Notes under the pieces: model-generated
What the model saw: only the letters and a program-made list of their open reading frames with translations
The model's database searches: none
What the model was told of the DNA's origin: nothing
NCBI GenBank assembly: GCA_964484655.1
Contig: CAZAFA010000001.1
Coordinates: 31,242 to 95,241 of the forward strand
Direction: 5' to 3'
Source: an uncultured Candidatus Saccharibacteria bacterium
Lineage (GTDB): Bacteria > Patescibacteriota > Minisyncoccia > UBA6257 > 2-01-FULL-56-20
DNA length: 64,000 nucleotides
Made by a program: the position numbers and the translations under genes
Shown here: positions 1 through 47,311 of the stretch, in pieces
Numbering within the stretch: the first letter of the stretch is position 1
How the letters are laid out: each line of letters starts with the position of its first letter

Positions 1-19
1 GACGTGATCCCGTCCGGCG

Positions 20-469
20 ATGCTGTCCGCTAGCGTCGGCATCCTCCTGCTCGCGCTGGCCGCTGCGCGCTTCCCTGAGGCGCCCCTGCTGGCGTTCCTG
101 CCTGCCGTCGCGGGAACCGCGCTCGCCGCGGTGACGCCGCGGGGACGCGGCGCCTGGCGAGCCGGCCTGCTCGCTGCCGGATTCCTCACCTGGCTCCCCG
201 GGAACCTGATCCTCGCTCTCGCGACGGCCCTCCTTCCGGCAGCCGTCTCGTTCGCGCGCGGAAGGCTGCCGGTGCGCACTGCGGGCTTCGCGCTGGCGAC
301 GCTGCCGGCGGCGACCTACCTGGCCGCCAGCGCGGCGGCGCGCAGCTTCGCGCTCCCGCTCCAGTATCCGCTGGACCTCTGTGCCGCCCTCGTCATCGGT
401 GCTACCCTCAGCTCGCTTGCCTATGCGCCGCTACAGAGAGAACGGTTTGGGACTCGAGGACGCGCTTGA
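20..469 (+). CDS. Polytopic membrane protein, possibly rod-shape protein MreD
   Basis: Complete 149-aa ORF that begins right after an in-frame stop. It is hydrophobic, Ala/Leu-rich and multi-TM, and its end overlaps the PBP2 start as in mreD-mrdA operons. No diagnostic motif. Confidence 0.35.
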   Translation: MLSASVGILLLALAAARFPEAPLLAFLPAVAGTALAAVTPRGRGAWRAGLLAAGFLTWLPGNLILALATALLPAAVSFARGRLPVRTAGFALATLPAATYLAASAAARSFALPLQYPLDLCAALVIGATLSSLAYAPLQRERFGTRGRA

Positions 470-2294
470 CCTCGGCTTCGGGAGCGGCGAGGTCCGCGAG
501 CTGCCCCTGCACCGGGGCAGTCTGGCGTTCGCGGGCTTCGTCGCGGTCCTGGTGGTCGCGGGGGTCGTCTCGCGCATGCTCTGGCTCGGGGTCGCCCAGG
601 GCGCCTACTACGGCGAGCTCGCCGAGGCGAACGTCAACTATGCCGTCACTACGGACGCGCCGCGCGGTCGTATCCTCGACGCGTACGGTGAGCTGCTCGC
701 GGATAACGCGCCGTCGTTCGCGCTGCAGCTGGACGTGCGCGCCTACCTCAAGGAAGGGGAAGAGGAGCGCGCTGCGGCGCTCGAGCTCATCCGCGCGCAG
801 ACCGGCCTCGAGCCCGCGACCGTGGAGGAGCGCATCCAGGCGCAGCTGAAGGCCAACCGCGGCGAGCCGCTCACCGTGTACCGCGGCCTGACGGAGGCGC
901 AGGTCGTCGCCGTCCGCGCCGCCAAGCGCGCGGACGTCACCGTCCGCGAGGGCTACCAGCGCGCCTATCCGCTCGGGGCGGCCGCGGCGCACGTGGTCGG
1001 CTACACCGGGCCCGTCTCCGCGGACGACCTCGAATCCGACCCGTCCCTGATCCCGACCGACGTCATCGGCAGGCAGGGCGTCGAGGCGTACTACGACGAC
1101 CGCCTGCGCGGCATCCTCGGCCGCACGCTCGTCAGCCGCGACGCCGCCGGCGCGCTGCTCGGCGACGAGCGGACCACGCCTGCCGAGCCGGGACAGGACC
1201 TGCATCTCACGATCGACGCGGAGCTGCAGAAGTACGCGTACGAGCGGCTCACGCAGGGGCTGCATTCGCTCGGGCGCACGCGCGGCGCCGTGGTCATCGT
1301 CGACCCGCGCGACGGCGCCGTGCGCGCGCTCGCGTCCGCGCCGAGCTTCGAGCCCGAGGCGTTCGTCCAGTCCAACCGGCGCGAGGAGCGCGCGCAGTAC
1401 CTCGAGAGCGCCGACCGCCCGCTCTACGACCGCGTCGTCTCCGGCGTCTACACGCCTGGATCGACGATCAAGCCGCTGCACGCGATCGCGGCGCTGAGCG
1501 AGAACGTCGTGAGCACGGACTGGAGCATATTCTCCCCGGGCTACCTGGACATCCCGAACCCGTACAACCCGAGCAAGCCGACGCGCTACGTGGACTGGCG
1601 CTACCAGGGCGTGGTCAACGCGCGCAGTGCGATCGCGCAGTCGTCGAACGTGTACTTCTACGCCGTCGGCGGCGGCACCGGATCGCTTAAGGGCCTGGGC
1701 ATCACGCGCCTGCGCGCGTGGTGGCAGCGCTTCCTCCTCGACCAGAAGACGGGCATCGACCTGCCGGGGGAAGGCGTCGGCTTCCTCCCGAGCCCGGAAT
1801 GGAAGAAGGACCGCACAGGCAAGGACTGGCTGCTCGGCGACACGTACAACGTCTCGATCGGGCAGGGCGACCTGACGCTCACGCCGCTGCGCCTCGCGAA
1901 CTACGTCGCGGCGGTAGCGAACGGCGGCACGGTCTGGAAGCCGTTCGTGAACGCGTCCTCGACGCCGCAGGTCGCGGCGGACCTCACCATGTACGCTCCC
2001 GCGATCGCGGAAGCGCAGAAGGGGATGCGGCAGACTATCACCTCCGACCTCGGTACGGCGCACACCATGGACGGCCTGCCGTTCGCGGTCGCGGGAAAGA
2101 CCGGCTCTGCTCAGATCCAGAACAACGCCAAGGAGAACGCCTTCTTCGTCGGCTACGCCCCGTACCAGAATCCCGAGATAGCCATCGCGCTGCTCGTGGA
2201 GGACGCCAAGCACGGCAGCCTCAACGCCGTGCCGATCGCGCAGGACATCTTCCGCTGGTGGTACGAACACCGGGGAGTAGGGAAGCCAAAATAA
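423..2294 (+). CDS. mrdA: Penicillin-binding protein 2 (peptidoglycan D,D-transpeptidase)
   Basis: N-terminal TM helix. Transpeptidase motifs STIK (SxxK), SSN and KTGS present. HVVGYTG dimerisation-domain signature. The start was moved to M at 423 to limit overlap with the upstream ORF; the track ORF starts at 381. Confidence 0.8.
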   Translation: MRRYRENGLGLEDALDLGFGSGEVRELPLHRGSLAFAGFVAVLVVAGVVSRMLWLGVAQGAYYGELAEANVNYAVTTDAPRGRILDAYGELLADNAPSFALQLDVRAYLKEGEEERAAALELIRAQTGLEPATVEERIQAQLKANRGEPLTVYRGLTEAQVVAVRAAKRADVTVREGYQRAYPLGAAAAHVVGYTGPVSADDLESDPSLIPTDVIGRQGVEAYYDDRLRGILGRTLVSRDAAGALLGDERTTPAEPGQDLHLTIDAELQKYAYERLTQGLHSLGRTRGAVVIVDPRDGAVRALASAPSFEPEAFVQSNRREERAQYLESADRPLYDRVVSGVYTPGSTIKPLHAIAALSENVVSTDWSIFSPGYLDIPNPYNPSKPTRYVDWRYQGVVNARSAIAQSSNVYFYAVGGGTGSLKGLGITRLRAWWQRFLLDQKTGIDLPGEGVGFLPSPEWKKDRTGKDWLLGDTYNVSIGQGDLTLTPLRLANYVAAVANGGTVWKPFVNASSTPQVAADLTMYAPAIAEAQKGMRQTITSDLGTAHTMDGLPFAVAGKTGSAQIQNNAKENAFFVGYAPYQNPEIAIALLVEDAKHGSLNAVPIAQDIFRWWYEHRGVGKPK

Positions 2295-2295
2295 T

Positions 2296-2323
2296 GAAGA
2301 AGCCCGCATCAGCGGGCTTCTTC
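2296..2323. terminator. Hairpin terminator shared by convergent mrdA and isochorismatase-family gene
   Basis: gaagaagcccgc-atca-gcgggcttcttc perfect 12-bp stem. The stop codon of the minus-strand gene lies in the loop. Confidence 0.5.
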
Positions 2324-2887
2324 GGCTAAAACGGTGCGTGCCCAGGACACGCGACGCGCGATGCGCATCGTCAGCGATCGCGGCGGCGCGAGCAGCTCGT
2401 CGAACGTGTCGACGATCCTTCCCTTGCTCGCGAACCAACCGATGTCGTCGTCGGCAGGGTGCGTCTCCTTCCCGGCAATCACGTTCGGGCTCGTGACGAC
2501 ACCGAACTTGCGCTGCAGCGCGCCGTGCGCGGTCCAGCGGACGCATGCCGTGGCGTTGATGCCCATCAGGAACAGCGTCTCGACGCCCCAGCGGTCCAGA
2601 TGCTCCTGGAGCCTGGTATCAGCGAAGGCGTTGTCCCATTGCTTCACGATCCGCTCCTGCCGCAACACGGATACCGCAGCGACGCGCAGCGTCTCGTGCG
2701 TCGGTTCCGCCGGGATCTGGGCGTACTCCACGACTACCAGGGGTATGTCGCGCTCGGCGCAGATGCGGATCGTCCGCAGCTGATGGGGGATGATGTGCGC
2801 TGCCGCGCCTGGACGGAGCTGCCGGATGAACACCGGCTGCATGTCTATCAGGAGGACGGCGAGACCCGTCCTCGGGTCTCGGGTCAT
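2309..2887 (-). CDS. Isochorismatase-family cysteine hydrolase
   Basis: 192 aa. LVLIDMQ..F N-terminal motif and GVETLFLMGINATACV catalytic-Cys region typical of the isochorismatase/YcaC fold. Confidence 0.6.
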   Translation of the reverse strand: MTRDPRTGLAVLLIDMQPVFIRQLRPGAAAHIIPHQLRTIRICAERDIPLVVVEYAQIPAEPTHETLRVAAVSVLRQERIVKQWDNAFADTRLQEHLDRWGVETLFLMGINATACVRWTAHGALQRKFGVVTSPNVIAGKETHPADDDIGWFASKGRIVDTFDELLAPPRSLTMRIARRVSWARTVLAEEAR

Positions 2888-3012
2888 ATGCGTTCACCTC
2901 GTCTTTCAAGAGTGCAGTTTCCGCTGCCTGGCGGAAGCTCACCACGGCTCGGGAGTGCCGTCAAACGCGGCTGTTGCCTTTTTCCGACCCGTTCCGTACT
3001 ATGCGCCCTGCT

Positions 3013-3324
3013 ATGGATTCCTTCGCGATCATCGCCACCGGCGGCAAGCAGTACCTCGTCGCCCCTGGCCAGAAGCTCAAGATCGAGAAGCTTGCCGGCG
3101 AGGCGGGCGACACGGTGACTTTCGACCAGGTCCTGCTGAGCACGGACGGCAAGAAGGTCAGCGTCGGCGCGCCCATCGTGGCCGGCGCGGGCGTGAAGGG
3201 GACGATCCTCCGCCAGGCGCGATCCAAGAAGGTGACGGTCTTCAAGTACCACTCGAAGAACCGCTACGACAAGAAGAAGGGCCACCGCCAGCACTTCACC
3301 GAGGTACGCATCGAGAGCCTGTAA
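3013..3324 (+). CDS. rplU: 50S ribosomal protein L21
   Basis: MDSFAIIATGGKQYLVAPGQKL...VFKYHSKNRYDKKKGHRQHFTEVRI is strong L21 family similarity. No rpmA downstream. Confidence 0.85.
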   Translation: MDSFAIIATGGKQYLVAPGQKLKIEKLAGEAGDTVTFDQVLLSTDGKKVSVGAPIVAGAGVKGTILRQARSKKVTVFKYHSKNRYDKKKGHRQHFTEVRIESL

Positions 3325-3598
3325 AAGGGCTCTCGTCCGTTATGCACCGGTTATCCAGGACGGCCGCTTGCCTGTTCCCGCCAGGGAGGTATGCTCGTCC
3401 TTGCGTCGGAACACAGCCAGCACGTGACTGGCCGACCTCCGGGCTCTATTACCGCGAAAGCATCGCCGCTGGATTCTGAGCCAGCATTCGTTTCCGGATC
3501 ACAGGAACCACCGCTTTCGTCTTACTGACCCAGCCTGACAGGCATCCACGCAACCAAGAGGCAGCCACGTGTGCTGCCTCATTTGTCGCTTGGAATAA

Positions 3599-3627
3599 TT
3601 GACATTTAGCATATTTAATGCTTAAAT
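3599..3627 (+). promoter_or_regulatory. Sigma70-like promoter (TTGACA-17-TTAAAT) in AT-rich spacer
   Basis: ttgaca at 3599-3604 and a TAAAT-type -10 17 nt downstream. It is followed by a 5'UTR with RBS aggaga and the ATG at 3694. Confidence 0.45.
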
Positions 3628-3693
3628 ATGGGCAGTAACAAGGCAGTCCCGCTGCCCGTTCGAATCTGAATACGTAATAAGGAGACAAATACT

Positions 3694-4008
3694 ATGGCTG
3701 AAAACAGCTTCCGCGTTCGCGTGATAGACGAACGCAACCTGCCGACGGTGGTCGGCGAAACTGGCACGGTGGACCTCCATCTGGAGCACACCGATGCCGA
3801 CGGCAAGTGGGCGAACGTGAGGATGCGCGTCCGCGTCACGAAGACCGACGGATCGCGCTCGAAAGCCGAGTTCGACGGAGCGATCCTCGTCTCGCGCGGC
3901 GCGTTCCACGAACGGCACCCGTTCGGAAAGTTCCGGCTTCGGCGCGGGGACCATCCCTTCTTCCTGCGCCATCAACTGCATTCTCAGAAGGTCTTCATGA
4001 CCATCTGA
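3694..4008 (+). CDS. Hypothetical small protein (104 aa)
   Basis: Strong promoter plus AGGAGA RBS 8 nt upstream of the ATG. No recognisable family. GC is slightly lower than the neighbours. Confidence 0.5.
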   Translation: MAENSFRVRVIDERNLPTVVGETGTVDLHLEHTDADGKWANVRMRVRVTKTDGSRSKAEFDGAILVSRGAFHERHPFGKFRLRRGDHPFFLRHQLHSQKVFMTI

Positions 4009-4045
4009 CCAATTCCCAGAGCCCCCGCACCCGCGGGGGCTCGCT

Positions 4046-5482
4046 TCATCTCAGGTCGTAGACCTGGGCGTCCGGCGGCACGCCGTCGGTGCTGGTCGCA
4101 TAGAAGACGCGCTCGCGCTGCTGCGCTTCCCGCGTCGCGGTTCCCGTGACGAACATCACGGTCTGCGCCGCTACCGGCATGCCGCCGATGCGCACGTCGC
4201 CGTCGGGGACGATCACGTACGCGTCGCGAGCTCGGTCCCGCTGCAGCAGCGCCCGTCCGGCCTCGAGGTAGCTCGTCGTGAACTCGTCGCGGACCTCGGG
4301 CTTCGCGGCATACGCCGGATACCGCACCGCGGTGCTCGCGAGCGCGCCGCCGCAGACTAGTACCGCAAGCGCGATTCCCGCCCGCGGCCAGCGCCGAGCC
4401 GCGCGGTCCAGCGCGAACGCCGAAAGCAGCATCACCGGCACGACGAGGAGTATCCCGCGCAGCGCGTGCGGCATACCCTCGTTGCTGAGCACGGCGGGGA
4501 GCGCGCCCGCGACCAGGAGCGCCCCGACGATCGCCGCGTCATGCTTCCGCCGCCACAGGAGCGCGGCTCCGACGAGCGTGCAGGCGAGGACCGGCAGCGC
4601 CACCGCCGGCGCGCCGCTGTCGTTATGGCGCCAGTTGCGATCGCCGTTCCAGGCGAGCATGCCGGCCATCAGCGCGACGTTGCGCGCGATCTCTCGCGCG
4701 GGTCGCTCCGTCTCCCATGCGGCGACCTGGTCCGCGCGCTCCCCGAAGCTTCCCGGATGCGTGGCGAAGTAGTGCGCGAGGGGAGCGGCGGCGATGGCGG
4801 CGCAGACGCCGGCGAGCGCGAGCGCCGCGGCGACGCGCCTCCGCGCATCGCGCGCGCAAGCGATAAGCGCGATGCCGATCGCGGCGAACGCGAGCCCTGC
4901 GGCGCGGAAGGCGATGTACGTATGCAGGCCGACGCCGGCTAGGAATCCTCCCAGCGCAGCGAGCGGCCATCCGTTCGCGCCTTCGCGCACGCGTCGCACG
5001 CCGGCGAGGAGCGCCCAGAGCGCGAAGACGAGCACGAGCGGCGCGAGGATCGCGCGGAACCCGACGCGCGAGAAGACGACGTGCCAGAAGCTTCCCGCGA
5101 GGAGCGCCGCTGCGATCAGGCCGGCGCGCCTGCCCCAGAGCTCGCGCCCGAGCAGGTACATGCCGGGGACGGTCAGGATGCCGGCGAGCGCGGAGACCAG
5201 GCGCAGGACCCACGGCTCGCGGACGCCCGCGACGGCGAGCGCGATGGACTGCAGGTTCGCGTACAGGCCCTCGCGGCCGTTGTTGCCCGGGTAGAACCAG
5301 TCCCACCGGCCTTCGAGCGCCGCGAGGGCGTCGTTGCCCTCGGTAGCCTCGTCGGGATAGAGGCCGGGCGGCAGGTCCGCGAGGCTCGCGAGCCGCAGGG
5401 ATGCCGCGGCGAGGACGATGCCGGCGAGGAGGAGGCGCGTCGGCGTGATCCACGTGGGCAAGCGCATGGGCGAAGTGTACAC
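4046..5482 (-). CDS. Glycosyltransferase family 39 (ArnT/PMT-like, phospholipid-carrier-dependent) membrane protein
   Basis: 478 aa and polytopic. N-terminal LPPGLYPDEATEGNDA region with the conserved DE of the GT-C PMT_2/ArnT family. Confidence 0.65.
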   Translation of the reverse strand: MYTSPMRLPTWITPTRLLLAGIVLAAASLRLASLADLPPGLYPDEATEGNDALAALEGRWDWFYPGNNGREGLYANLQSIALAVAGVREPWVLRLVSALAGILTVPGMYLLGRELWGRRAGLIAAALLAGSFWHVVFSRVGFRAILAPLVLVFALWALLAGVRRVREGANGWPLAALGGFLAGVGLHTYIAFRAAGLAFAAIGIALIACARDARRRVAAALALAGVCAAIAAAPLAHYFATHPGSFGERADQVAAWETERPAREIARNVALMAGMLAWNGDRNWRHNDSGAPAVALPVLACTLVGAALLWRRKHDAAIVGALLVAGALPAVLSNEGMPHALRGILLVVPVMLLSAFALDRAARRWPRAGIALAVLVCGGALASTAVRYPAYAAKPEVRDEFTTSYLEAGRALLQRDRARDAYVIVPDGDVRIGGMPVAAQTVMFVTGTATREAQQRERVFYATSTDGVPPDAQVYDLR

Positions 5483-5489
5483 TTATCGC

Positions 5490-5861
5490 ATGGAGACTCC
5501 CGAGCAGCCGCGCGTCGTCAACTTCAGCGAAGCTGACGTGGCGCGCGTGAAGACGGAGCTCGAGTCGCGGCCGGAGACGCGCGCCGAGGGCGCGCCCGCG
5601 AACCGCGAGGCCGTTCGGCAGGCGCTCGTCGCCGTCCTCCCGCAGCCGGTGCCCGCGACGGCAACCTCGACGCCGTCGCAGGTCGTCGAGACGGCCGGAA
5701 CGCAGCAGCGCGTGGAGGCGCTGGTCCGCCAAGCCGCCGAGCAGGGCATCGACGCGGCGCACGCCCGCGCCGCTGCGGACGAGCCCTACGTGCTCGACGC
5801 GTTCCACGACGCGCTCGCCGGCGCGATGCACGACGAGCTCGCTCGTCGCGGACTGCTCTGA
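5490..5861 (+). CDS. Hypothetical soluble protein translationally coupled to the downstream ATPase
   Basis: 123 aa from M at 5490 (the track ORF starts at 5418). Its stop TGA overlaps the ATG of the next gene (ctgATGc). Ala/Glu-rich with no known domain. Confidence 0.4.
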   Translation: METPEQPRVVNFSEADVARVKTELESRPETRAEGAPANREAVRQALVAVLPQPVPATATSTPSQVVETAGTQQRVEALVRQAAEQGIDAAHARAAADEPYVLDAFHDALAGAMHDELARRGLL

Positions 5862-8221
5862 TGCAGTATCTCGCGTACGGCCTCGTCATCGGCTTCCTCG
5901 CGCTGTGCGGGATCGGCGCGTTCCTCATCCGGCGCACGCTTCGGCACCGCGCCCTCATCGCGTCGCTCAGCTACGCGCTGCTGCTCGTGCGCGTGCCGCG
6001 CGAGGACAGCAAGCAGGGCGAGGACCTGAAGACGCAGACCGCGCGCGCCGAGCAGCTGTTCGCCGGCCTGCTCTCGCTCGGCGTGCCGGTGTCCTACGAG
6101 GTCGCCGTGCCGCACGTCGGCGAGGAGCTCCACTTCTACCTGTCCGTGCCGCGCACGATGATCGACGCGGCGACGCGCCAGGTCCAGGCCCTCTGGCCGT
6201 CCGCCTCCGTATCGCGCGAGGAGGGGGACTACAACATCTTCTCTCCCGGAGGCTCGGTCGCAGCCGCGTACGTCATCGCGAAGGATTCGCATGCGCTGCC
6301 GATCCGCACCTACCTCGAGCTGGGCACGGACACGACCGCGTCCATCCTGGGCGGCTTCGCGAAGCTCGCGAACATCGGCGAAGGAGCTTCCTTCCAGCTC
6401 GTCGTGCGTCCGGCTCCGAAGGACGCGGGGAAGGGGCTGCAGCGGATCCTCTCCGGACTCAAGGAAGGGAAGTCTCTCAAGGACCTGGTGCCGAGCCTGA
6501 GCCGATCGCTCAAGGACCTCGCGGGCTCCGCGGGGGACAGGAAGGAGGCAGGCGCCGCTCCGGGCCGCGTCGACGAAGAGCTCGTCCGCGCGCTCGAGGG
6601 CAAGCTCGCCAAGCCGCTCGCGTGGGCGGAGGTGCGCCTGGTCGCTTCGGCGCCGACGCAGGCCGCCGCGGACCAGATCCTCGAGAGCCTCGCCGCCGGC
6701 TTCGCGCAGTTCTCCGCGCCGCGTCGCAACGAGCTCAAGGTGAGCAGGCCGCGCTCCTGGCGGAGCATCGTGCACGAGTTCAGCTTCCGGGAATTCACGG
6801 GCAACGCGGCGTCGCTCCTCAACGTCGAGGAGCTCGCGAGCCTCTACCACTTCCCGCTGCCGGGCGCGGACCTCGCGCGCGTGAAGTGGCTCAAGTCCCG
6901 CGAGGCGCCGCCTCCGACCGACCTGCCGAAGGAAGGCCTGCTCCTCGGCGAGAGCGTGTACCGCGGCATGCGCACGCCTGTCTACCTCTCCGACGAGGAC
7001 CGCCGGCGCCACATCTACGTGATCGGACAGACCGGCACCGGTAAGTCGACGCTGCTGGGCAACCTCATCCTCGACGACATCAAGCGGGGAGCGGGCATCG
7101 CGGTCCTCGACCCGCACGGCGACCTCGTGGAGACGGCACTCGCGCATATCCCGCGGAACCGCATCGACGACGTCATCTACTTCGATCCGGGCGACCTCAT
7201 GCTCCCGATGGGGCTCAACATGCTCGAGTACAACCTCGCCAACCCCGAGGAGAAGACGTTCATCGTCAACGAGGTGCAGGGCATCTTCAACAAGCTCTTC
7301 CCGCCGGAGACGATGGGCCCGATGTTCGAGCAGTACATGAGGAACGCGCTCCTGCTGCTCATGGAGGACGCCGCCAACGAGCCGGCGACGCTCGTCGAGG
7401 TGCCGCGCATCTTCACGGACGCGGAATGGCGCAAGCGCAAGCTCGCGCGCATCGCTAACCCCGTGGTCCGCGACTTCTGGGAACAGGAGGCCTCGAAGGC
7501 GGGCGGGGACGCGTCCCTCGCGAACATGACGCCGTACATCACCTCGAAGTTCAGCAACTTCATCGCCAACGACTACGTGCGCCCCATCATCGGCCAGCCG
7601 CGCAGCAGCCTGAACTTCCGCGACGTCATGGACAGCGGGAAGATCCTCCTCGTGAACCTCGCGAAGGGGAAGATCGGCGACATCAACGCCAACCTGCTCG
7701 GCATGATCATCATGGGCCGCATCTCCATGTCCGCCTTCGCGCGCGCGGGTACGGCCAAGGAGTCGCGTCGCGACTTCCACGTCTACATCGACGAGTTCCA
7801 GAACTTCACGACCGACTCGATCTCCACGATCTTCTCCGAGGCCCGCAAGTACCGCCTGACCCTGACCGTGGCGCACCAGTTCATCGCGCAGCTGAGCGAC
7901 AAGATCCGCGACTCGGTCTTCGGGAACGTCGGCAACCAGCTCGCCATGCGCGTGGGTCCCGCCGACGCCGAGTTCCTCGTGAAGCAGTTCGAGCCCACCT
8001 TCACCGCCGCGGACCTGATCAACATCGACAACCTGAACGCGTACGCGAGCATCATGGTGAACGGGCAGACCACGACCGCGTTCAATCTCGAGGTGGGCCA
8101 CCAGTCCTGGGAGAAGGGCGATCCGGACTACACCGCGAAGCTGCGCGAGTACGCGCGCATCAAGCTCGGCACGCCGCGGCATCAGGTGGAGGCGGATATC
8201 ACAAGGCGTCTGCGGAACTAG
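5861..8221 (+). CDS. Membrane-anchored P-loop ATPase, type IV coupling protein-like (VirD4/TraD/TrwB family)
   Basis: 786 aa with one N-terminal TM. Walker A VIGQTGTGKST is followed by DPHGD, which resembles the DPKGE of TraD/TrwB. Walker B HVYIDEFQNF and an AHQ sensor are present. Confidence 0.55.
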   Translation: MQYLAYGLVIGFLALCGIGAFLIRRTLRHRALIASLSYALLLVRVPREDSKQGEDLKTQTARAEQLFAGLLSLGVPVSYEVAVPHVGEELHFYLSVPRTMIDAATRQVQALWPSASVSREEGDYNIFSPGGSVAAAYVIAKDSHALPIRTYLELGTDTTASILGGFAKLANIGEGASFQLVVRPAPKDAGKGLQRILSGLKEGKSLKDLVPSLSRSLKDLAGSAGDRKEAGAAPGRVDEELVRALEGKLAKPLAWAEVRLVASAPTQAAADQILESLAAGFAQFSAPRRNELKVSRPRSWRSIVHEFSFREFTGNAASLLNVEELASLYHFPLPGADLARVKWLKSREAPPPTDLPKEGLLLGESVYRGMRTPVYLSDEDRRRHIYVIGQTGTGKSTLLGNLILDDIKRGAGIAVLDPHGDLVETALAHIPRNRIDDVIYFDPGDLMLPMGLNMLEYNLANPEEKTFIVNEVQGIFNKLFPPETMGPMFEQYMRNALLLLMEDAANEPATLVEVPRIFTDAEWRKRKLARIANPVVRDFWEQEASKAGGDASLANMTPYITSKFSNFIANDYVRPIIGQPRSSLNFRDVMDSGKILLVNLAKGKIGDINANLLGMIIMGRISMSAFARAGTAKESRRDFHVYIDEFQNFTTDSISTIFSEARKYRLTLTVAHQFIAQLSDKIRDSVFGNVGNQLAMRVGPADAEFLVKQFEPTFTAADLINIDNLNAYASIMVNGQTTTAFNLEVGHQSWEKGDPDYTAKLREYARIKLGTPRHQVEADITRRLRN

Positions 8222-8280
8222 GTTTTTATAGAAATTTCATATCCTGTCCCCTAGGCTTGCCTCAGCTTGGAGGTGAAAAA

Positions 8281-8808
8281 ATGAATATTCGTATCGAAGA
8301 TGTACGCCATGAGCTTAGCGAGGTGTACCTTTTCTTAAATGAGCACGCGCAACAGGCACGCCAGTGCTTGCCGCCGCCGATGCTAGAAATCTTCGCTATC
8401 TGTGAAGATGACGGTGAAATAGTCGCTTGCTGCGGCGCTTCCGTAGCGAGCAAAGGAAGACTCCATATCGAGAAGATTTACCGTCTTGATGTTGAGACGG
8501 CACAATTTCTCGACAAGGAGCGCCAGAGGTTCTGCGAGATCGGGCGCTGGTTCTCGGTCGTTCCTGATGCAGCGACAGCAACCCTGAAGGCTCTGGTTAT
8601 GCATCTCGAGAAACAAGGAGTTGCGTTCGCTCTCTGCGAGCTCAAGGATGCAACGGTTCGCCGGGCAAAGCGCATGGGGCTCGCCTTTCATCAAACGGCT
8701 TCAACCTTAAATCTTGAGGCGATTGACGCAACGGAGATAGCTTACTACCAAGACGATCATCCGCCGAAGCTATACTGGCTGAATTTCGCTGAGATCCAGT
8801 GGAAGTAA
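8281..8808 (+). CDS. Hypothetical protein on a low-GC island, possible GNAT-fold acyltransferase
   Basis: 175 aa. GC ~50% against ~68% flanking. RBS ggaggtg 7 nt upstream. The C-terminal LKDATVRRAKRMGLAF resembles the GNAT motif (A/V)xxx(Y/A)xkxGF. No confident family assignment. Confidence 0.5.
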   Translation: MNIRIEDVRHELSEVYLFLNEHAQQARQCLPPPMLEIFAICEDDGEIVACCGASVASKGRLHIEKIYRLDVETAQFLDKERQRFCEIGRWFSVVPDAATATLKALVMHLEKQGVAFALCELKDATVRRAKRMGLAFHQTASTLNLEAIDATEIAYYQDDHPPKLYWLNFAEIQWK

Positions 8809-8842
8809 AAAAAGAAACCGAGGAGATCTCGGTTTCTTTTTA
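8809..8842. terminator. Bidirectional rho-independent terminator
   Basis: aaaaa-gaaaccgag-gagat-ctcggtttc-ttttt. A perfect 9-bp stem flanked by an A-tract and a T-tract, serving the convergent genes on both sides. Confidence 0.65.
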
Positions 8843-10041
8843 TAAACTCACGAACCGCTTCCGTAGGATGCGCCAGGCGTCCAGCGGCGAGAGCATGCTC
8901 AATAGATACCGTGCCTCGGCGAGGATGGAGAGTAGCTGCGCGAGTCGTCCTCGGCAGCGCACGCCCAGGTACTGGGCGACGCCTCCCCTGGTACCCAGCG
9001 GGACCACGAACACCGGCCAGCCAGGATGGAACGGCCGCTCCTTCTTCCCGGCGATGCGCCGCAGGATGTTGTCCGCGACGCGGTCCGCCTGGTCGAGCGC
9101 CATATGCGCGGTCCAGGGAAGCGGCTTGCCCTTGTAATGGAAGGACGCGGCGTCGCCGATCGCATACACGTGCGGCTCGACGCCGCCCTCCTGCGGCACG
9201 CACGTCAGAGGCGCATCCGCCGCGAGCCGTCCCTTCTCCTGCACGTAGGGGAGCGTGCTCAGGATCGCCGGCGGCTGGATGCCGCCGGTCCAGACGAGCA
9301 CGTCGTGCGGCAGCGCGGCGCCGTCCGCGAGCGTCACCGCATCCTTGTCCGCGCCGGTTATGGCGACGCCGGTGCGCACCTGCACGCCTCTGCGCGCGAG
9401 CTCTTCGGCGGCGTAGGTCCGGACGTGCTCCGGGTAATTGCCGAGAATGGAAGGCGAAGCTTCCACGAGGGTGACGTGAACGCCTGCCTGCCAGGCGCCG
9501 ATGCGCTCGGCGAGCATCGCCGCGAGCTCGACGCCGGTCGGACCGGCGCCGCCTATCGTCACGCGCAGCGGCTTGTCCCGTCCGCGCATGAGCGTCGCGA
9601 GCGTGCGGTTGATGCGGTCCGCGTCAGCGAGCGTCTTGAGCGTGACGGCGTGCTCCTTGAGGCCGGGGATGCCGTAATACGCAGGCTCGCTCCCGAGCGC
9701 GATCACGAGCGTGTCGTAGCCGACCTGCCGTCCGTCCGCGAGCCCCACGGTCCTTGCCTCGGCGTCGATCGACGCGACCTCGGCCTGCATGAACGAGATC
9801 GGGAGGCCGGCGATGAGGCGCCGGATGGAGAGGGCGAAGGCGCGGTCCATAACGCGACGCCGCGCCGCGTCGGTGACGGCGCCCGCGAGGAGGTAGAAGC
9901 CGGGCGTGTAGCCGTGCATGCCGTCGCGGTTGATCAGCGTCACCGCGAGGTGCCGCCGCTTCGCGTCCCGCGCGAGGTTCCGCGCGGCGCGGATCCCGGC
10001 GAATCCGCCGCCGACGATGACCACGCGATGCGGGGAGCTCA
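8840..10041 (-). CDS. ndh: Type II NADH dehydrogenase (NDH-2), FAD-dependent pyridine nucleotide-disulfide oxidoreductase
   Basis: VVIVGGGFAGIRAA dinucleotide-binding motif, a second GAGPTGVELAAML Rossmann motif, and AIGDAA near the C-terminus. The start was chosen at MSSPH; the track ORF extends to 10087. Confidence 0.7.
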
Positions 10042-10086
10042 TGCGCACATTGTACCGGGGGTCCCCGATGAGTAAACTCGAGGGCA

Positions 10087-12255
10087 ATGCTCAAGCCTCT
10101 CGCCGACGCCTCCGACCGCGCCCTCTCCGGCATCGCGCTCGTGCGCATCGACGTCAACGCGGCTGACGACTGGCGCCTCGAGGCGGTCGTGCCTACGATT
10201 CGCCATCTCGCGGAGCGCGCGCGGAAGGTGATCGTGATCAGCCACAAGGGACGTCCGTCGCCGGGACAGCGCCTCGGCCCGCTGAGCCTCTGGAGCGACG
10301 CGCAGAAGCTGCAGGAGCATCTGGAGCAGGACGTCTGGTTCGTCTCCGACACGAGCATTCCCGCGGTGCGCAAGGAGCTCGCCACGATTCCCGACGGCAC
10401 CGTGACGGTCCTCGAGAACATCCGCGCCTTCAAGGGCGAATCCTCGGACGCGGAGAGCTTCGCGGCCGCGCTCGCCTCGCTCGGGGACTACTACGTCTCC
10501 GACGCGTTCCCGGTCTTGCATCACCCGGCGGCTTCCGTGACCGGCCTGCCGCGCCTCCTGCCGAGCTACGCCGGCTTCCAGCTCACCGAGGAGCTCGAGC
10601 GGCTCGGCAAGCTCTCCAACCGCGTGCGCCGGCCGTACGTGGTGGTAATCGGCGGCGCGAAGGCGGGGGACAAGCTCGGCGTCCTCGAGGAGGTGATCGG
10701 GCGCGCGGACAAGGTGCTCGTCGGCGGCGCGTGCGCGAACGCGCTGCTCGCGCTCTCGGGCGTCGACGTCGGGAACTCCGTCTACGAGCGCGACCCGAAG
10801 CTGCTCGCCGCGCTCAAGCCGTACGTGGGGCATAAGAAGATCATCCTGCCGACGGACTACGTCAGGAGCGGCGGCCGGATCCTCGACATCGGCCCGAAGA
10901 CGGCGCGCGCCTTCGCGCGCGAGGTGGGCAAGGCGGGGACCGTGCTCTGGACGGGCCCGCTCGGCCTCATCGAGCAGAAGCGCTTCGCGAAGGGCACGCT
11001 CGCCGCGGCCGTCGCGGCGGCGCGCAACCGCAAGGCGTTCACGGTCACCGGCGGCGGCGAGACGGTCACGTTCCTCAAGCAGCACGGCCTCGACCGGAAG
11101 TTCTCCTTCATCTCGACCGGCGGCGGCGCGATGATCGACTTCGTCGCGGGGAAGAAGCTGCCCGGCCTCGAGGCGCTCGCCGGACGCAAGGCGCCCGCCC
11201 CGCGGAAGAAGGCGGCCACGACGAAGGAGCGCGTCGCCCAGGTCATCGCGCCGAAGATGCCGAAGCTCGCGCCGACCTATGACATCTTCTTCCACGACGA
11301 CTTCGACGGCCGCGCCTCGGCCGCGGTCTTCATGGACTTCCTGTCGTCGCGCAAGAGCAAGGTGGGCCGCCTGATCCCGGTGGAGCACGACCTTGCCGAC
11401 GTCTGGCTCAAGCGCGACGCGCTCAATCGCATCGCCGGCAGCAAGCGGATCAACCCGGCCGTAGTCGTGGATTTCCCGTACCACCCGCAGGCCGCCTTCT
11501 GGTATGACCATCATCCGGGCGCCATCCGCCTGCCGGAGTGGGAGGCGCGCTTCCAGCCGTCCGTGTTCCGCCGGCTCGACACGGACTACGCGTCGGCCTG
11601 CCATCTCGTCCTGGACATGCTCGTCGAGGGATTCGGGTACGCGCCGCCGCGCCGCATCAAGGAGCTCGCGCGCTGGGCGGACATCGTCGACAGCGCCCGC
11701 TGGACCAACCCGTATCAGACCTTCGCGCTTCGGGAGCCTGGCATGCAGGTGAGCTCCTTCATCAGCGACGAGGCTGCCGCCGCCGCGCGCCGCGGCGAGC
11801 GCACGGACGCGCTTCCCTGGCTCATCGAGCTCATGGCCAAGCACGGCGTCGAGCGCGCCTCGCGCGACAAGCGCGTGCAGGCGGCCGTCGCGCGCATCCG
11901 CGAGGAGAGCAAGCAGTCGCTCGCGTTCTACCGCCGCAACCTGGAGGAGCGGGGGATCGTCGCGGTCATCGACACGTCGGGCCTGCCGACGCGCAAGCTG
12001 CGGTACGCGCCGTACTACCTGTCTCCCGCAGCGATCTACGCGCTCGCCCTGTCCGAGCGCAAGGACGGCTCGTACGTCATCCAGGCAGGCGTCAGCCCCT
12101 GGAAACGGGAGCGCAACGCCTTCGACATCGGCGGCGTGCTCCGGCAGTTCGGGGGCGGCGGCCATCCCTTCGCGGGCGCCGTGCGGCTCGCCACCCGAGC
12201 CGAAGCCGACCGCGTCGTCGACTACCTCGTCTCGCTGTTCAATGGCACCAGCTAG
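10087..12255 (+). CDS. pgk: Fusion protein: phosphoglycerate kinase (N-terminal) plus DHH/DHHA1 phosphoesterase (NrnA-like, C-terminal)
   Basis: Residues 1-~372 form a complete PGK, ending with the PGK C-terminus FISTGGGAMIDFVAGKKLPGLEAL. A basic linker follows. The C-terminal ~350 aa carry DHH motifs FHDDFDG, VVVDFPYHP, WYDHHPG and the DHHA1 GGGGHPFAG. There is no stop between the two parts. Confidence 0.75.
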   Translation: MLKPLADASDRALSGIALVRIDVNAADDWRLEAVVPTIRHLAERARKVIVISHKGRPSPGQRLGPLSLWSDAQKLQEHLEQDVWFVSDTSIPAVRKELATIPDGTVTVLENIRAFKGESSDAESFAAALASLGDYYVSDAFPVLHHPAASVTGLPRLLPSYAGFQLTEELERLGKLSNRVRRPYVVVIGGAKAGDKLGVLEEVIGRADKVLVGGACANALLALSGVDVGNSVYERDPKLLAALKPYVGHKKIILPTDYVRSGGRILDIGPKTARAFAREVGKAGTVLWTGPLGLIEQKRFAKGTLAAAVAAARNRKAFTVTGGGETVTFLKQHGLDRKFSFISTGGGAMIDFVAGKKLPGLEALAGRKAPAPRKKAATTKERVAQVIAPKMPKLAPTYDIFFHDDFDGRASAAVFMDFLSSRKSKVGRLIPVEHDLADVWLKRDALNRIAGSKRINPAVVVDFPYHPQAAFWYDHHPGAIRLPEWEARFQPSVFRRLDTDYASACHLVLDMLVEGFGYAPPRRIKELARWADIVDSARWTNPYQTFALREPGMQVSSFISDEAAAAARRGERTDALPWLIELMAKHGVERASRDKRVQAAVARIREESKQSLAFYRRNLEERGIVAVIDTSGLPTRKLRYAPYYLSPAAIYALALSERKDGSYVIQAGVSPWKRERNAFDIGGVLRQFGGGGHPFAGAVRLATRAEADRVVDYLVSLFNGTS

Positions 12256-34518: not shown

Positions 34519-34552
34519 AAAGGACCCCGCTTGGTGCGGGGTCCTTTCGTTA
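34519..34552 (+). terminator. Rho-independent terminator
   Basis: aaaggaccccgc-ttgg-tgcggggtcctttcgtt. Confidence 0.5.
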
Positions 34553-34911
34553 GGCGGCGTCCTGGTAAGCGGGATTCTGTCGCGCGAGCGCGGGCAGCAA
34601 TCTGTCTGGGATCATCGTCGCCGATGACCTCAAGCGGCACTCCGGCTTGCGCCGGCACGGCCTTGCACCCGGTAAGGATTTAGCCGTTTCACCCCGGCGG
34701 TCTCCCGCCGGACTGTCCCCGAGGGGACCCGGAGGCATTTCTGCTCCGGCGTCTCTGTTCGCACCTCTCGCGTTGCCGCGGCGGGCCGTTAGCCCGTACC
34801 TTTTTGACTCGATGAAGAGTGGGTGTCCCGACTTTCCTCTGGAGCGGAACTCCAGCTGCTGCCTCGGACGCCGCGCTGGCAGTCTGTCAGCTTTGGCTCG
34901 CGATGCAAGGC

Positions 34912-39203: not shown

Positions 39204-39737
39204 TCACATCTCGAGCAGGTATTCGGCGATGACGCCGCCTTCCTCCAAGTATCTCGCCTTCGCGTCGTCAGGCAGGTCCTTGAACCCGCCGATGGCGCCG
39301 CGGCAGATGCCGCTGCCGCACAGGCAGGGGACCCCTGCCGCGGTGACGTCGTACTCGAGGGTGGCGTAGTCGAACGCCAGTTCTTCCCCGACCGCGATGT
39401 CGCGACGGGCGACGACCGCGATGACCGCGACCGTGCCTTCCCAGCTCGGACGGACGATCACGGTAGGATCGCACGAATGGTTGAGGAAGTGTCCCGGATT
39501 GAAGGTGCCGTTCAGGCGTTCCGGCTCGATGTGCCGGTCCCGGTCGAACGCGAACGAATACTTCGTCGGCGCGTTCACAAGCATACCTTTCACCGGGAAG
39601 ATCATCTCACCCTTGCGGAACGATCGCGTTGCGATCACGCCCGCCTGTCCGCTCACGGACGGGCTCAGCCCGATGGCTATGCCCCAGTAGTCCATGAAAT
39701 ATATTGCGCCGTCGATGACGGGCGTATTGCTGTCCAT
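39204..39737 (-). CDS. SET-domain protein-lysine methyltransferase
   Basis: FLNHSCDPT (NHSCxPN motif), EELAFDY (ELxFDY), and the post-SET Cys cluster CLCGSGICRG. Confidence 0.7.
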   Translation of the reverse strand: MDSNTPVIDGAIYFMDYWGIAIGLSPSVSGQAGVIATRSFRKGEMIFPVKGMLVNAPTKYSFAFDRDRHIEPERLNGTFNPGHFLNHSCDPTVIVRPSWEGTVAVIAVVARRDIAVGEELAFDYATLEYDVTAAGVPCLCGSGICRGAIGGFKDLPDDAKARYLEEGGVIAEYLLEM

Positions 39738-39754
39738 ATGGTTCGTCGTCTCCT

Positions 39755-39834
39755 GATTTTTCGAAAAATCGAACTGCTCCTATTTTACATACAAAATCAG
39801 ATTTTTGTCAATCGTAGCCTATGTAAAAAGGAGC
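39755..39834 (-). promoter_or_regulatory. Promoter (TTGACA-N17-TAAAAT on minus strand) plus perfect 16-bp palindrome in the 5'UTR of the SET gene
   Basis: The minus strand reads ttgacaaaaatctgattttgtatgTAAAAT, and the palindrome is gatttttcgaaaaatc at 39755-39770. A second inverted repeat is ctcctattttacata/tatgtaaaaaggag. Confidence 0.4.
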
Positions 39835-39858
39835 ATCTCTCCGATGCTCCTTTTCGCC
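39828..39858. terminator. Bidirectional terminator insulating SAM decarboxylase from SET gene
   Basis: aaaaaggagcatc-tctcc-gatgctcctttt. Confidence 0.5.
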
Positions 39859-39871
39859 GAACGGTCCCTTC

Positions 39872-40252
39872 CTAGACGCGGGTGACCACGCTGTGGTTCT
39901 CGTCGCCCGCCTTCCAGTACTCCATGCAGAACTTCACCGCGTCCTCGGGGTCGAACTCGCGGCACGAGAAGAGGTTGAGGTACATGGTCTTGGTGATCGT
40001 GAGGGCATGGCACACGACGTTGCTGGTCTCGATGAACTGGATCGCCGAGATGCCGTCGAGGTGGGGGATGCCGGAGTGGTCCTCCCACATCATCGGCTCG
40101 CCGTGGCGCACCATCTTAACGTGGTCGACGAGCTTGACGAGGAATTCGCCCAGCGTTTCCTGCGTGAGGCCGCTGAAGTCGCATCCGCGCATGTCGAGGA
40201 TCAGCTCGAGGCCGTAATTGCCCCGGTATCCGTATTGCTCCTGTTCTGCCAT
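39872..40252 (-). CDS. speH: S-adenosylmethionine decarboxylase proenzyme (SpeH-like, class 1)
   Basis: LELILDMRGCD and ETSNVVCHALTITK...LFSC parallel the ESH...HTWPE...FTCG layout of small bacterial/archaeal AdoMetDC. The start at M(AEQEQ) is uncertain. Confidence 0.5.
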   Translation of the reverse strand: MAEQEQYGYRGNYGLELILDMRGCDFSGLTQETLGEFLVKLVDHVKMVRHGEPMMWEDHSGIPHLDGISAIQFIETSNVVCHALTITKTMYLNLFSCREFDPEDAVKFCMEYWKAGDENHSVVTRV

Positions 40253-40395
40253 TGAAATGAGATGATGATTTGAGAGTTCGGCTCTTGACCGCATTCTAGA
40301 CCTCTGGGGATGTGGGCTCAAGTGTCCCCGCGGGTTTTCCCCAGGGGCTGATTCCCGGTGCGCTACACTATCCCTATCGGGTCCTATCTGTCCCC

Positions 40396-45086: not shown

Positions 45087-45338
45087 TTACGCCTCCTCCT
45101 TCTTGGCGCGTACCTTCTTGGCCTTCTTCTCAACCGGCGCCGCCGCCTGGCGGGAGCGGAAGCGCTCGACGCGCCCGGCGGTGTCGATGAGCTTCTGCTC
45201 GCCGGTGAAGAACGGATGGCACTTCGAGCAGATCTCGATGTCGTAGGATTCGCGGGTTCCGCCGACGGTGAACTTGGTGCCGCAGCCGCAGGTAGCGGTC
45301 GCGGACGCGTGATAGACGGGGTGCAGGTCTGCCTTCAT
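45087..45338 (-). CDS. rpmE: 50S ribosomal protein L31 (Zn-ribbon type)
   Basis: MKADLHPVYH...CGCGTKF...CSKCHPFFTGEQK..DTAGRVERF is the L31 signature with C-x2-C pairs. Confidence 0.85.
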   Translation of the reverse strand: MKADLHPVYHASATATCGCGTKFTVGGTRESYDIEICSKCHPFFTGEQKLIDTAGRVERFRSRQAAAPVEKKAKKVRAKKEEA

Positions 45339-45369
45339 GGTGCCGGCATCCTATCCCTCCTTATTAGGT

Positions 45370-45397
45370 TTGACAAGGCGTGCCCGGTCCGTATACT
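45370..45397 (+). promoter_or_regulatory. Consensus sigma70 promoter for the 16S rRNA gene
   Basis: TTGACA at 45370-45375, a 16-nt spacer, and TATACT at 45392-45397, about 320 nt upstream of the mature 16S 5' end. Confidence 0.55.
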
Positions 45398-45714
45398 CCA
45401 ACCCGCACTCTGCTTGAGCCTCACCGGCCCCTTGCGGGCCGCTTCGCTTGAACGGGGCGCACCTTGAAAGCGCGATCACAAGGACAGTAATGACGGACGC
45501 ACCGATCGCGTCCGAACAAACCAGAAAAGTTTAGTAGTTGCTCCAATAGCGTCTGGCTCCCTGTAATGGGGCGCACGGCGTTAAACAAGAACAACTACTC
45601 AACAAGAGTGAACTCTGTTCATTCAATTTGAGTGACCCAAAGAAAAGTGAGCTCTACGTGCCCGAAACCCGACCGCTACGGCGGAGGCGAGTACTGCGCG
45701 ATATCTCATTCTTC

Positions 45715-47311
<1,597 letters not shown>

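Follow-up and report, generated by a model that had tools for sequence, protein, structure and literature searches.

Is an AT-rich, one-gene island in a GC-rich genome the trace of a recent arrival, and what does its only product do? The question is raised by positions 8222–8845 of a 64,000-nucleotide stretch (hereafter the window) of contig CAZAFA010000001.1 from an uncultured Candidatus Saccharibacteria bacterium, where a single open reading frame (ORF) for a 175-amino acid (aa) protein lies between an ATPase gene and a convergent gene for a Pyr_redox_2 flavoprotein. We consider it probable that the island is an old one-gene acyltransferase cassette, mainly vertically inherited, whose product is a LuxI/FeeM-like enzyme. 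The evolutionary part of this reading is established by the data, and the chemistry is deduced from fold and family. The cassette, made up of a conserved 5′ element, a leader hairpin, a ribosome-binding site (RBS), the ORF, and a shared bidirectional terminator, would have entered a variable junction between a core ATPase of the HerA/type IV coupling protein (T4CP) superfamily and Pyr_redox_2 in the common ancestor of a narrow Paceibacteria subclade; Paceibacteria belong to the Patescibacteria or candidate phyla radiation (CPR). It would then have passed mainly vertically under purifying selection, and now and then recombination in the conserved flanks would have exchanged the whole cassette for a divergent allele.

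The first-pass annotation of this DNA had described a drop in GC content and had called for codon and tetranucleotide statistics, which agree with it. The GC content of 8222–8845 is 0.498 against a 64-kb mean of 0.672 (standard deviation 0.049 in 624-bp windows; z = −3.55), and the lowest of all 63,377 sliding 624-bp windows starts at 8223. At the 100-bp scale the dip is bounded on both sides, from about 0.66 at 8100 to 0.42–0.58 and back to 0.63–0.71 from 8850. GC content at third codon positions (GC3) is 0.58 in the cassette ORF, as compared to 0.94 in the ATPase, 0.885 in Pyr_redox_2, and 0.90 in the small gene upstream of the ATPase. The L1 distance of the island to the 64-kb tetranucleotide profile gives z = 3.65; deviation above this value was found in only 4 of 610 windows, all within the 16S ribosomal RNA (rRNA) gene. 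A codon adaptation index-like measure built on the codon usage of the neighbors is 0.283 for the cassette ORF versus 0.65–0.79 for seven nearby genes. No other protein-coding stretch of the window is as AT-rich as the island. Low GC is also seen in the AT-rich leader of the 16S rRNA gene (45178–45700), and a third, milder patch (39600–40200, GC 0.545–0.568) overlaps minus-strand ORFs at 39204–39737 and 39872–40321.

Such AT-richness and foreign codon usage would suit a recent horizontal acquisition from a low-GC donor, not yet ameliorated, as the same annotation had proposed, and so would the absence of the gene from most Paceibacteria and the variability of its slot. The relatives of the locus tell a different story. 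All 13 homologs whose contigs were read (36–52% identity) occupy the same slot, in the order 123-aa gene, DUF8128/DUF87 ATPase, cassette, and convergent Pyr_redox_2. Upstream of it lie MreB/MreC/PBP2 and ribosomal protein L21, and downstream phosphoglycerate kinase (PGK), RNase H, PMT_2, DUF4012, and LepA. The ATPases of these cassette-bearing relatives are only 71–82% identical to that of the window, where measurable. Furthermore, protein distances of the cassette gene and Pyr_redox_2 are strongly correlated (Mantel r = 0.92, p = 2e-4), and neighbor-joining trees of the two give the same clades. The ratio of nonsynonymous to synonymous divergence (dN/dS) of the cassette gene is about 0.05, indicating purifying selection. 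The proposal had itself counted vertically inherited homologs in related genomes as evidence against recent transfer, and such homologs, together with a GC deficit common to all lineages, are what we found. A recently transferred island should combine atypical composition with patchy presence or an incongruent tree; the first is present here and the second is not. Thus, we regard recent acquisition as scarcely credible.

Relatives of the protein were also looked for in the databases. A search of 5.8 billion proteins retrieved six relatives with 45–52% identity, and a profile search added five more with 35–47%; the closest homolog anywhere is 52% identical, so that no recent donor is visible in this collection. 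An exhaustive hidden Markov model search of 1.84 billion cluster representatives returned six sequences at E ≤ 1e-54, the next at 2.6e-20, and 218 reaching E ≤ 1e-3. The nearest outgroups are CPR proteins as well, namely a Parcubacteria protein (MBI2451319.1, named “thermostable hemolysin” by NCBI) and a Terrybacteria protein. A scan of JGI metagenomes with the family profile gave 207 pattern matches, none of them confirmed. None of 33 pattern matches in the IMG/VR viral set was confirmed either, and there is therefore no evidence for a phage vehicle.

How the gene came to the slot can be read from loci that lack it. The ATPase has at least 484 relatives among GTDB species representatives, and we surveyed the loci of the 80 most similar ones; the organisms that carry the closest ATPases also mark the genome of the window as a Paceibacteria lineage. 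The cassette was present in one, the closest (L015, ATPase 71% identity), and absent from the other 79. In the outgroups L018 and L029, the slot is empty and the ATPase is followed by Pyr_redox_2 after a gap of 29 and 59 bp, respectively; in other cassette-less loci, the ATPase is followed by PGK or by unrelated genes. Other tenants of the slot are an aminoglycoside phosphotransferase-type kinase (L016), an FAD-linked oxidase with an ORF of no assigned function (L026), an ASCH-domain protein (L061), and further such ORFs (L028 and L042). The junction between the ATPase and Pyr_redox_2 is thus a variable accessory-gene site across Paceibacteria. Because the junction is variable, the cassette is missing from 79 of 80 surveyed loci, and synteny holds in all 13 relatives, the data support a single old insertion at the base of a narrow Paceibacteria subclade.

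If the cassette is old, its low GC content calls for another reading. Cassette GC3 lies below that of the flanks by 0.125–0.40 in 11 of 11 loci, whose overall GC content ranges from 0.45 to 0.67, and regression across these loci gives a slope of 0.49 (r = 0.79). That the window has the strongest contrast is due solely to its genome being the most GC-rich. These data show that low GC is a long-standing trait of the cassette in every lineage and not a mark of recent arrival. More generally, a sharp anomaly in GC and codon usage is no proof of recent transfer on its own; here, it has persisted through the diversification of a whole clade with GC of about 0.45–0.67. Pooling of alleles among lineages was considered as a cause of the low GC and rejected, as the cassettes of the lowest-GC hosts still lie below the GC of their flanks. 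The shift toward AT could possibly reflect weak expression, selection on codon choice, or a divergent segment's escape from GC-biased gene conversion.

The divergent character of the segment became apparent when pairs of closely related genomes were compared. Between L001 and L008, the flanking proteins are 98–99% identical and the cassette protein 82%. Nucleotide identity falls from 95–100% to 70–78% exactly across spacer, gene, and spacer, and synonymous divergence (dS) is about 2.1 in the cassette (proportion of synonymous differences 0.70, saturated) versus 0.25–0.43 in the flanks. In L003/L095, the cassette dS of 0.08 lies below the 0.20–0.38 of the flanks, while in L015/L096 dS is equal in both. 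The pairs L004/L006 and L011/L012 show no differences in the cassette and 0.2–2.7% in the flanks. This suggests that the genealogy of the cassette is at times decoupled from that of its flanks, with replacement by recombination in the conserved neighbors. As a separate observation, L004 and L006 form a mosaic over positions 1–4954, with no differences at 1–662 and 4086–4954, 1.4% in Pyr_redox_2, and 2.7% in PGK, which reflects either recombination between coexisting strains or a chimeric assembly of mixed strains.

Both the low GC and the divergence could in principle stem from a mutation rate that is raised locally and biased toward AT, for instance by transcription-associated deamination. 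Such a rate would account for the GC deficit relative to the flanks in every lineage and for L001/L008, where dN and dS are both about 7–14 times those of the flanks and dN/dS is unchanged. However, the four other pairs show no excess, which rules out local hypermutation as the source of the L001/L008 cassette divergence. In addition, the cassette and the co-oriented ATPase show no consistent difference in GC and AT skews at third positions. We therefore give a raised mutation rate very little weight.

What kind of protein has been kept in this way? The first-pass annotation had found no confident family, but the protein matches Pfam PF12261 (T_hemolysin) with 37.5 bits against a gathering cutoff of 27 (E 2.8e-9), residues 31–142 spanning profile positions 28–143 of 174. 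The same family is matched by 49 of 67 wider relatives. Other PF12261 members are at most 28% identical to the cassette protein, which is a new member of an isolated subfamily within this known but biochemically uncharacterized family; the chromosomal surroundings of its gene are ordinary. Its PF00583 score of 14.7 bits lies under the cutoff of 20.7, there was no match in NCBIfam, PADLOC, or PHROGs, and searching the PDB by sequence, with the single protein or with a 67-sequence profile, returned nothing significant.

An AlphaFold model built on 12 homologs (predicted local distance difference test 91.7, predicted template modeling score 0.86) has the mixed α/β fold of the GNAT superfamily, with its β4-α3-β5-α4-β6 core. 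Its best fold matches are the LuxI/FeeM long-chain acyl transferases. Residues G88, R89, and W90 on β4 and E120 on β5, plus G133 and Y156, are conserved family-wide, and the β4/β5 region forms the active-site (catalytic) cleft of GNAT enzymes. The Q/RxxGxG/A loop, which binds the pyrophosphate of acetyl-coenzyme A (acetyl-CoA), is absent after the EIGRW strand of β4 in 12 of 12 subfamily members. A GNAT-like motif noticed earlier near the C terminus does fall on α4-β6 of the model; its alignment to HAYRRMGF, the corresponding motif in nourseothricin acetyltransferase, is weak (E 0.13).

The GNAT fold also leaves room for an antibiotic-modifying short-chain acetyltransferase or for the GNAT toxin in a toxin-antitoxin module. 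The suggestion in the annotation of an acyl- or acetyltransferase, perhaps of a toxin- or antibiotic-modifying type, holds for the GNAT-type acyltransferase fold, while the toxin or antibiotic type is unlikely. Fold or weak sequence matches do include AAC(6′)-Ib and the bialaphos/phosphinothricin and streptothricin acetyltransferases, but these rank under the LuxI/FeeM group, and the missing acetyl-CoA loop speaks against them. Like classical GNATs (AAC(6′)-Ib, RimI, and PaiA), the cassette protein has an R-R-A-x-x-x-G-L-x-F motif B-like segment on α4-β6; unlike them, it has no such loop and stays below the PF00583 cutoff, and its structural scores against them are lower than against LuxI/FeeM. 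As for toxins of the TacT/AtaT type, no antitoxin-sized ORF adjoins the gene, the spacers of 59 bp upstream and 31 bp downstream being too short to hold one, and neither PADLOC nor NCBIfam offers a matching model. Thus, an antibiotic-modifying enzyme or a toxin of this kind is improbable to a high degree.

The name of the family, which was given for heat-stable hemolytic or cytolytic activity, raises a second alternative, a nonenzymatic cytolysin like the Vibrio hemolysins delta-VPH and delta-VFH, which would be released, bind anionic lipids, permeabilize the host membrane, and thereby feed an episymbiont. The cassette protein shares with these proteins the PF12261 match above the gathering cutoff and a similar size (175 aa versus about 180–210 aa). 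Recombinant delta-VFH was reported to be cytotoxic and to bind phosphatidylserine, phosphatidic acid, and phosphoinositides (PMC11033176), hemolysins have been proposed as host-attack factors of CPR bacteria (PMC8080830 and PMC11974145), and divergent cassette alleles could mirror an arms race. Nevertheless, the Vibrio proteins come from proteobacteria and are described as secreted (PMC11033176), whereas the cassette protein belongs to an isolated subfamily in a CPR host. It has no signal peptide or transmembrane segment and is acidic (isoelectric point 5.5), globular, and predicted to be cytosolic. Its conserved residues lie in the GNAT catalytic cleft, and the low dN/dS gives no sign of diversifying selection. 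Moreover, methyltransferases, ThiF, aminotransferases, and amidinotransferases occur as fusion partners or neighbors of relatives, a context of small-molecule biosynthesis. We therefore consider a cytolysin unlikely, although less so than a toxin or an antibiotic-modifying enzyme.

This genomic context is clearest in distant PF12261/FeeM-like relatives, of which P0036 and P0136 are fused to S-adenosylmethionine (SAM) methyltransferases and P0038 carries an N-terminal ThiF domain. The closest outgroup homolog sits in an unrelated context (L097, 7079–9576), divergent from a UbiE-type methyltransferase gene and adjoined by a DDAH/ADI-like (amidinotransferase-like) gene and an aminotransferase gene. 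These fusions and neighbors hint at biosynthesis of N-acyl amino acids, perhaps as methyl esters.

The LuxI/FeeM-like reading can be compared with the known enzymes. FeeM, an N-acyl-tyrosine synthase from soil environmental DNA (PDB 2G0B, PF21926), is presumably also devoid of the acetyl-CoA loop motif, and 17 of the 67 wider relatives match PF21926 weakly (best E 1.9e-6). In contrast, the cassette protein is 11% identical to FeeM and does not match PF21926 at E ≤ 1, and its gene has no acyl carrier protein (ACP) gene or fee-type cluster beside it. The LuxI-type synthases TofI (3P2H), LasI (1RO5), RpaI (6WN0), MesI (6WNS), and BjaI (5W8A) are also among the closest known enzymes. The invariant E-I-G-R-W of β4 is a possible counterpart of the E-x-S-R-F strand of LuxI. 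Differences from LuxI are that the cassette protein does not match PF00765 (Autoind_synth) at E ≤ 1, that its sequence does not visibly carry the R..F..W signature for SAM binding at the N terminus, and that no LuxR-type receptor gene, a typical though not obligatory partner, adjoins, the neighbors being the ATPase and Pyr_redox_2 in all loci. Alignment of the family profile with hhalign to a LasI sequence was not significant (probability 0.8%).

On the preferred reading, the product would be a cytosolic GNAT-fold PF12261 enzyme with the architecture of LuxI-type acyl-homoserine lactone synthases and of the N-acyl amino acid synthase FeeM. Its likeliest reaction would be the N-acylation of a small, amino acid-derived acceptor, with an acyl-thioester (acyl-ACP or acyl-CoA) donating the longer acyl chain. 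The resulting amphiphilic N-acyl amide could serve as a membrane-active lipid or a signal.

Several points weigh against this reading. To our knowledge, CPR bacteria are generally reported to lack fatty acid synthesis, which makes the acyl donor uncertain. The cassette protein has no sequence-level link to LuxI or FeeM, by Pfam or by hhalign. The reading does not account for the persistent AT shift, and allele exchange is deduced from one strongly discordant pair, with all sequences coming from metagenome assemblies. We found no enzymology for PF12261 members in the literature, and the founding member of the family has been described in print as a secreted cytolysin that binds lipids (PMC11033176). 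Lipid recycling has been mentioned for CPR bacteria (PMC8080830). A more far-reaching idea, which we put forward as a long shot, is that a subclade of CPR episymbionts converts scavenged acyl chains into an N-acyl amide by means of a LuxI/FeeM-like synthase, the product being a diffusible signal or else a host-directed, membrane-active lipid; the AT-richness, the 5′ control element, and allele swapping would then reflect tight regulation and host-driven diversification.

The locus places a LuxI/FeeM-shaped acyltransferase of an uncharacterized Pfam family in Paceibacteria. The protein is small and easy to express, and it is a concrete candidate for a factor of the lipid or signal type through which CPR bacteria interact with their hosts. 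It also invites a fresh look at the “thermostable hemolysins”, which may be enzymes and not pore formers.

The layout of the cassette itself largely follows the first-pass annotation, which had listed a single 175-aa ORF with its own RBS and a bidirectional terminator. The ORF, for the PF12261 protein with the predicted GNAT fold of LuxI/FeeM type, runs on the plus strand from the ATG at 8281 to the TAA at 8808 (8281–8808). The Shine-Dalgarno sequence ggaggtg (8269–8275) ends 5 nucleotides (nt) before the ATG, and its GGAGG core (8269–8273) 7 nt before it. As a side observation on the start codon, in the P0009 lineage (L011, 9975–10003) a GTG 7 nt past AAGGAG would give a protein six residues longer than the called ATG does, and the annotated form may be too short.

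Immediately 3′ of the ATPase stop lies a cassette-specific, AT-rich, conserved 5′ element, TTTATAGAAATTTCATATC, of 19 nt on the plus strand (8225–8243), which contains the palindrome GAAATTTC. It occupies this position in all cassette-bearing loci, in degenerate form in L015, while the rest of the spacer is variable. None of the 79 cassette-less loci has the element behind the ATPase stop, and it occurs once in the 64-kb window, where no matches are expected by chance; it is therefore considered part of the cassette. The element is a candidate promoter or operator; a sigma-70 scan gave no hit. A role as a general promoter or regulon site was rejected in view of the single occurrence in the window and the empty sigma-70 scan.

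The element is followed by a 5′ leader hairpin on the plus strand (8247–8276, −11 kcal/mol), whose 3′ arm here pairs with the Shine-Dalgarno core; the spacer is shorter than in relatives. Relatives have an equivalent hairpin of variable sequence, which stands apart from the RBS and in most lineages is followed by a T-run, as in a terminator or attenuator. At the other end, a bidirectional, intrinsic terminator-like hairpin (8809–8841, either strand) separates the stop codon of the cassette gene from that of the convergent Pyr_redox_2 gene. Its stem is formed by 8814–8822 and 8828–8836 around the loop GAGAT, with A7 and T5 flanks. The hairpin GAAACCGAG-gagat-CTCGGTTTC (8814–8836) has a folding energy of −18.6 kcal/mol (z = −5.26 versus shuffled sequences); a simple terminator scanner did not flag it. 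A strong hairpin of unrelated sequence is found at the same position in 10 of 10 relatives examined. An integron-type cassette was considered and dropped, since an integrase is lacking and the hairpins at the 3′ end resemble ordinary terminators whose sequences are unrelated.

The left border of the slot is a plus-strand gene (5861–8221) for a membrane-anchored ATPase of 786 aa that belongs to the HerA/FtsK/T4CP superfamily (DUF8128, DUF87, and TraG-D_C). The annotation had called it VirD4/TraD-like and translationally coupled to a small upstream gene. The coupling is consistent with the 1-nt overlap (TGATG) of the two genes, and the likeness with the Pfam scores, which clear the gathering cutoffs for T4SS-DNA_transf (22.8 bits versus 20.1), TraG-D_C (23.3 versus 22), and DUF87 (38.5 bits). 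A role in conjugation did not stand. The NCBIfam T4CP models all score far under their cutoffs (TraD, for example, 47 versus 366), and no conjugative or type IV secretion context such as a relaxase or VirB4 was found around the ATPase, the context genes being core ones (MreB/C, PBP2, L21, PGK, RNase H, and LepA). The ATPase is thus a core Paceibacteria gene and part of neither a conjugation system nor the cassette. Because 79 of the 80 best ATPase loci do not have the cassette gene and its closest outgroup homolog lies elsewhere, there is no functional link between the two; the tie that the annotation had proposed to check by co-occurrence is positional. The ATPase also matches, almost over its full length, the phage family phrog_5156, which has no assigned function (E 2.5e-67), and the PADLOC model mad8 (E 1.4e-15). 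Either phages of these bacteria carry the same ATPase or CPR contigs entered the phage set.

The small upstream gene (5490–5861, plus strand) encodes 123 aa, has no assigned function, and showed no Pfam or NCBIfam family; its pairing with the ATPase is kept in L001, L003, L005, L011, and L096. The right border is the minus-strand gene of the Pyr_redox_2 flavoprotein (8840–10042), a 400-aa NADH-dehydrogenase-like protein (PF07992, E 9.7e-46) whose start at 10042 was set by alignment with relatives. Beyond it, the PGK gene (10087–12255, plus strand) encodes 722 aa, about twice the usual length. Its relatives have 718–739 aa, and PF00162 is the only family recorded, so that the protein is probably a fusion with another domain.

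Two RNA genes were noted elsewhere in the window. A complete 16S rRNA gene lies at 45715–47292. Neither the 16.7 kb left downstream of it nor the rest of the window gave a 23S or 5S match, so that the rRNA genes seem to be unlinked. A class A RNase P RNA at 34550–34874 on the minus strand matches the full length of its model with 107.9 bits against an Rfam gathering cutoff of 100 and is possibly a reduced or divergent CPR form.

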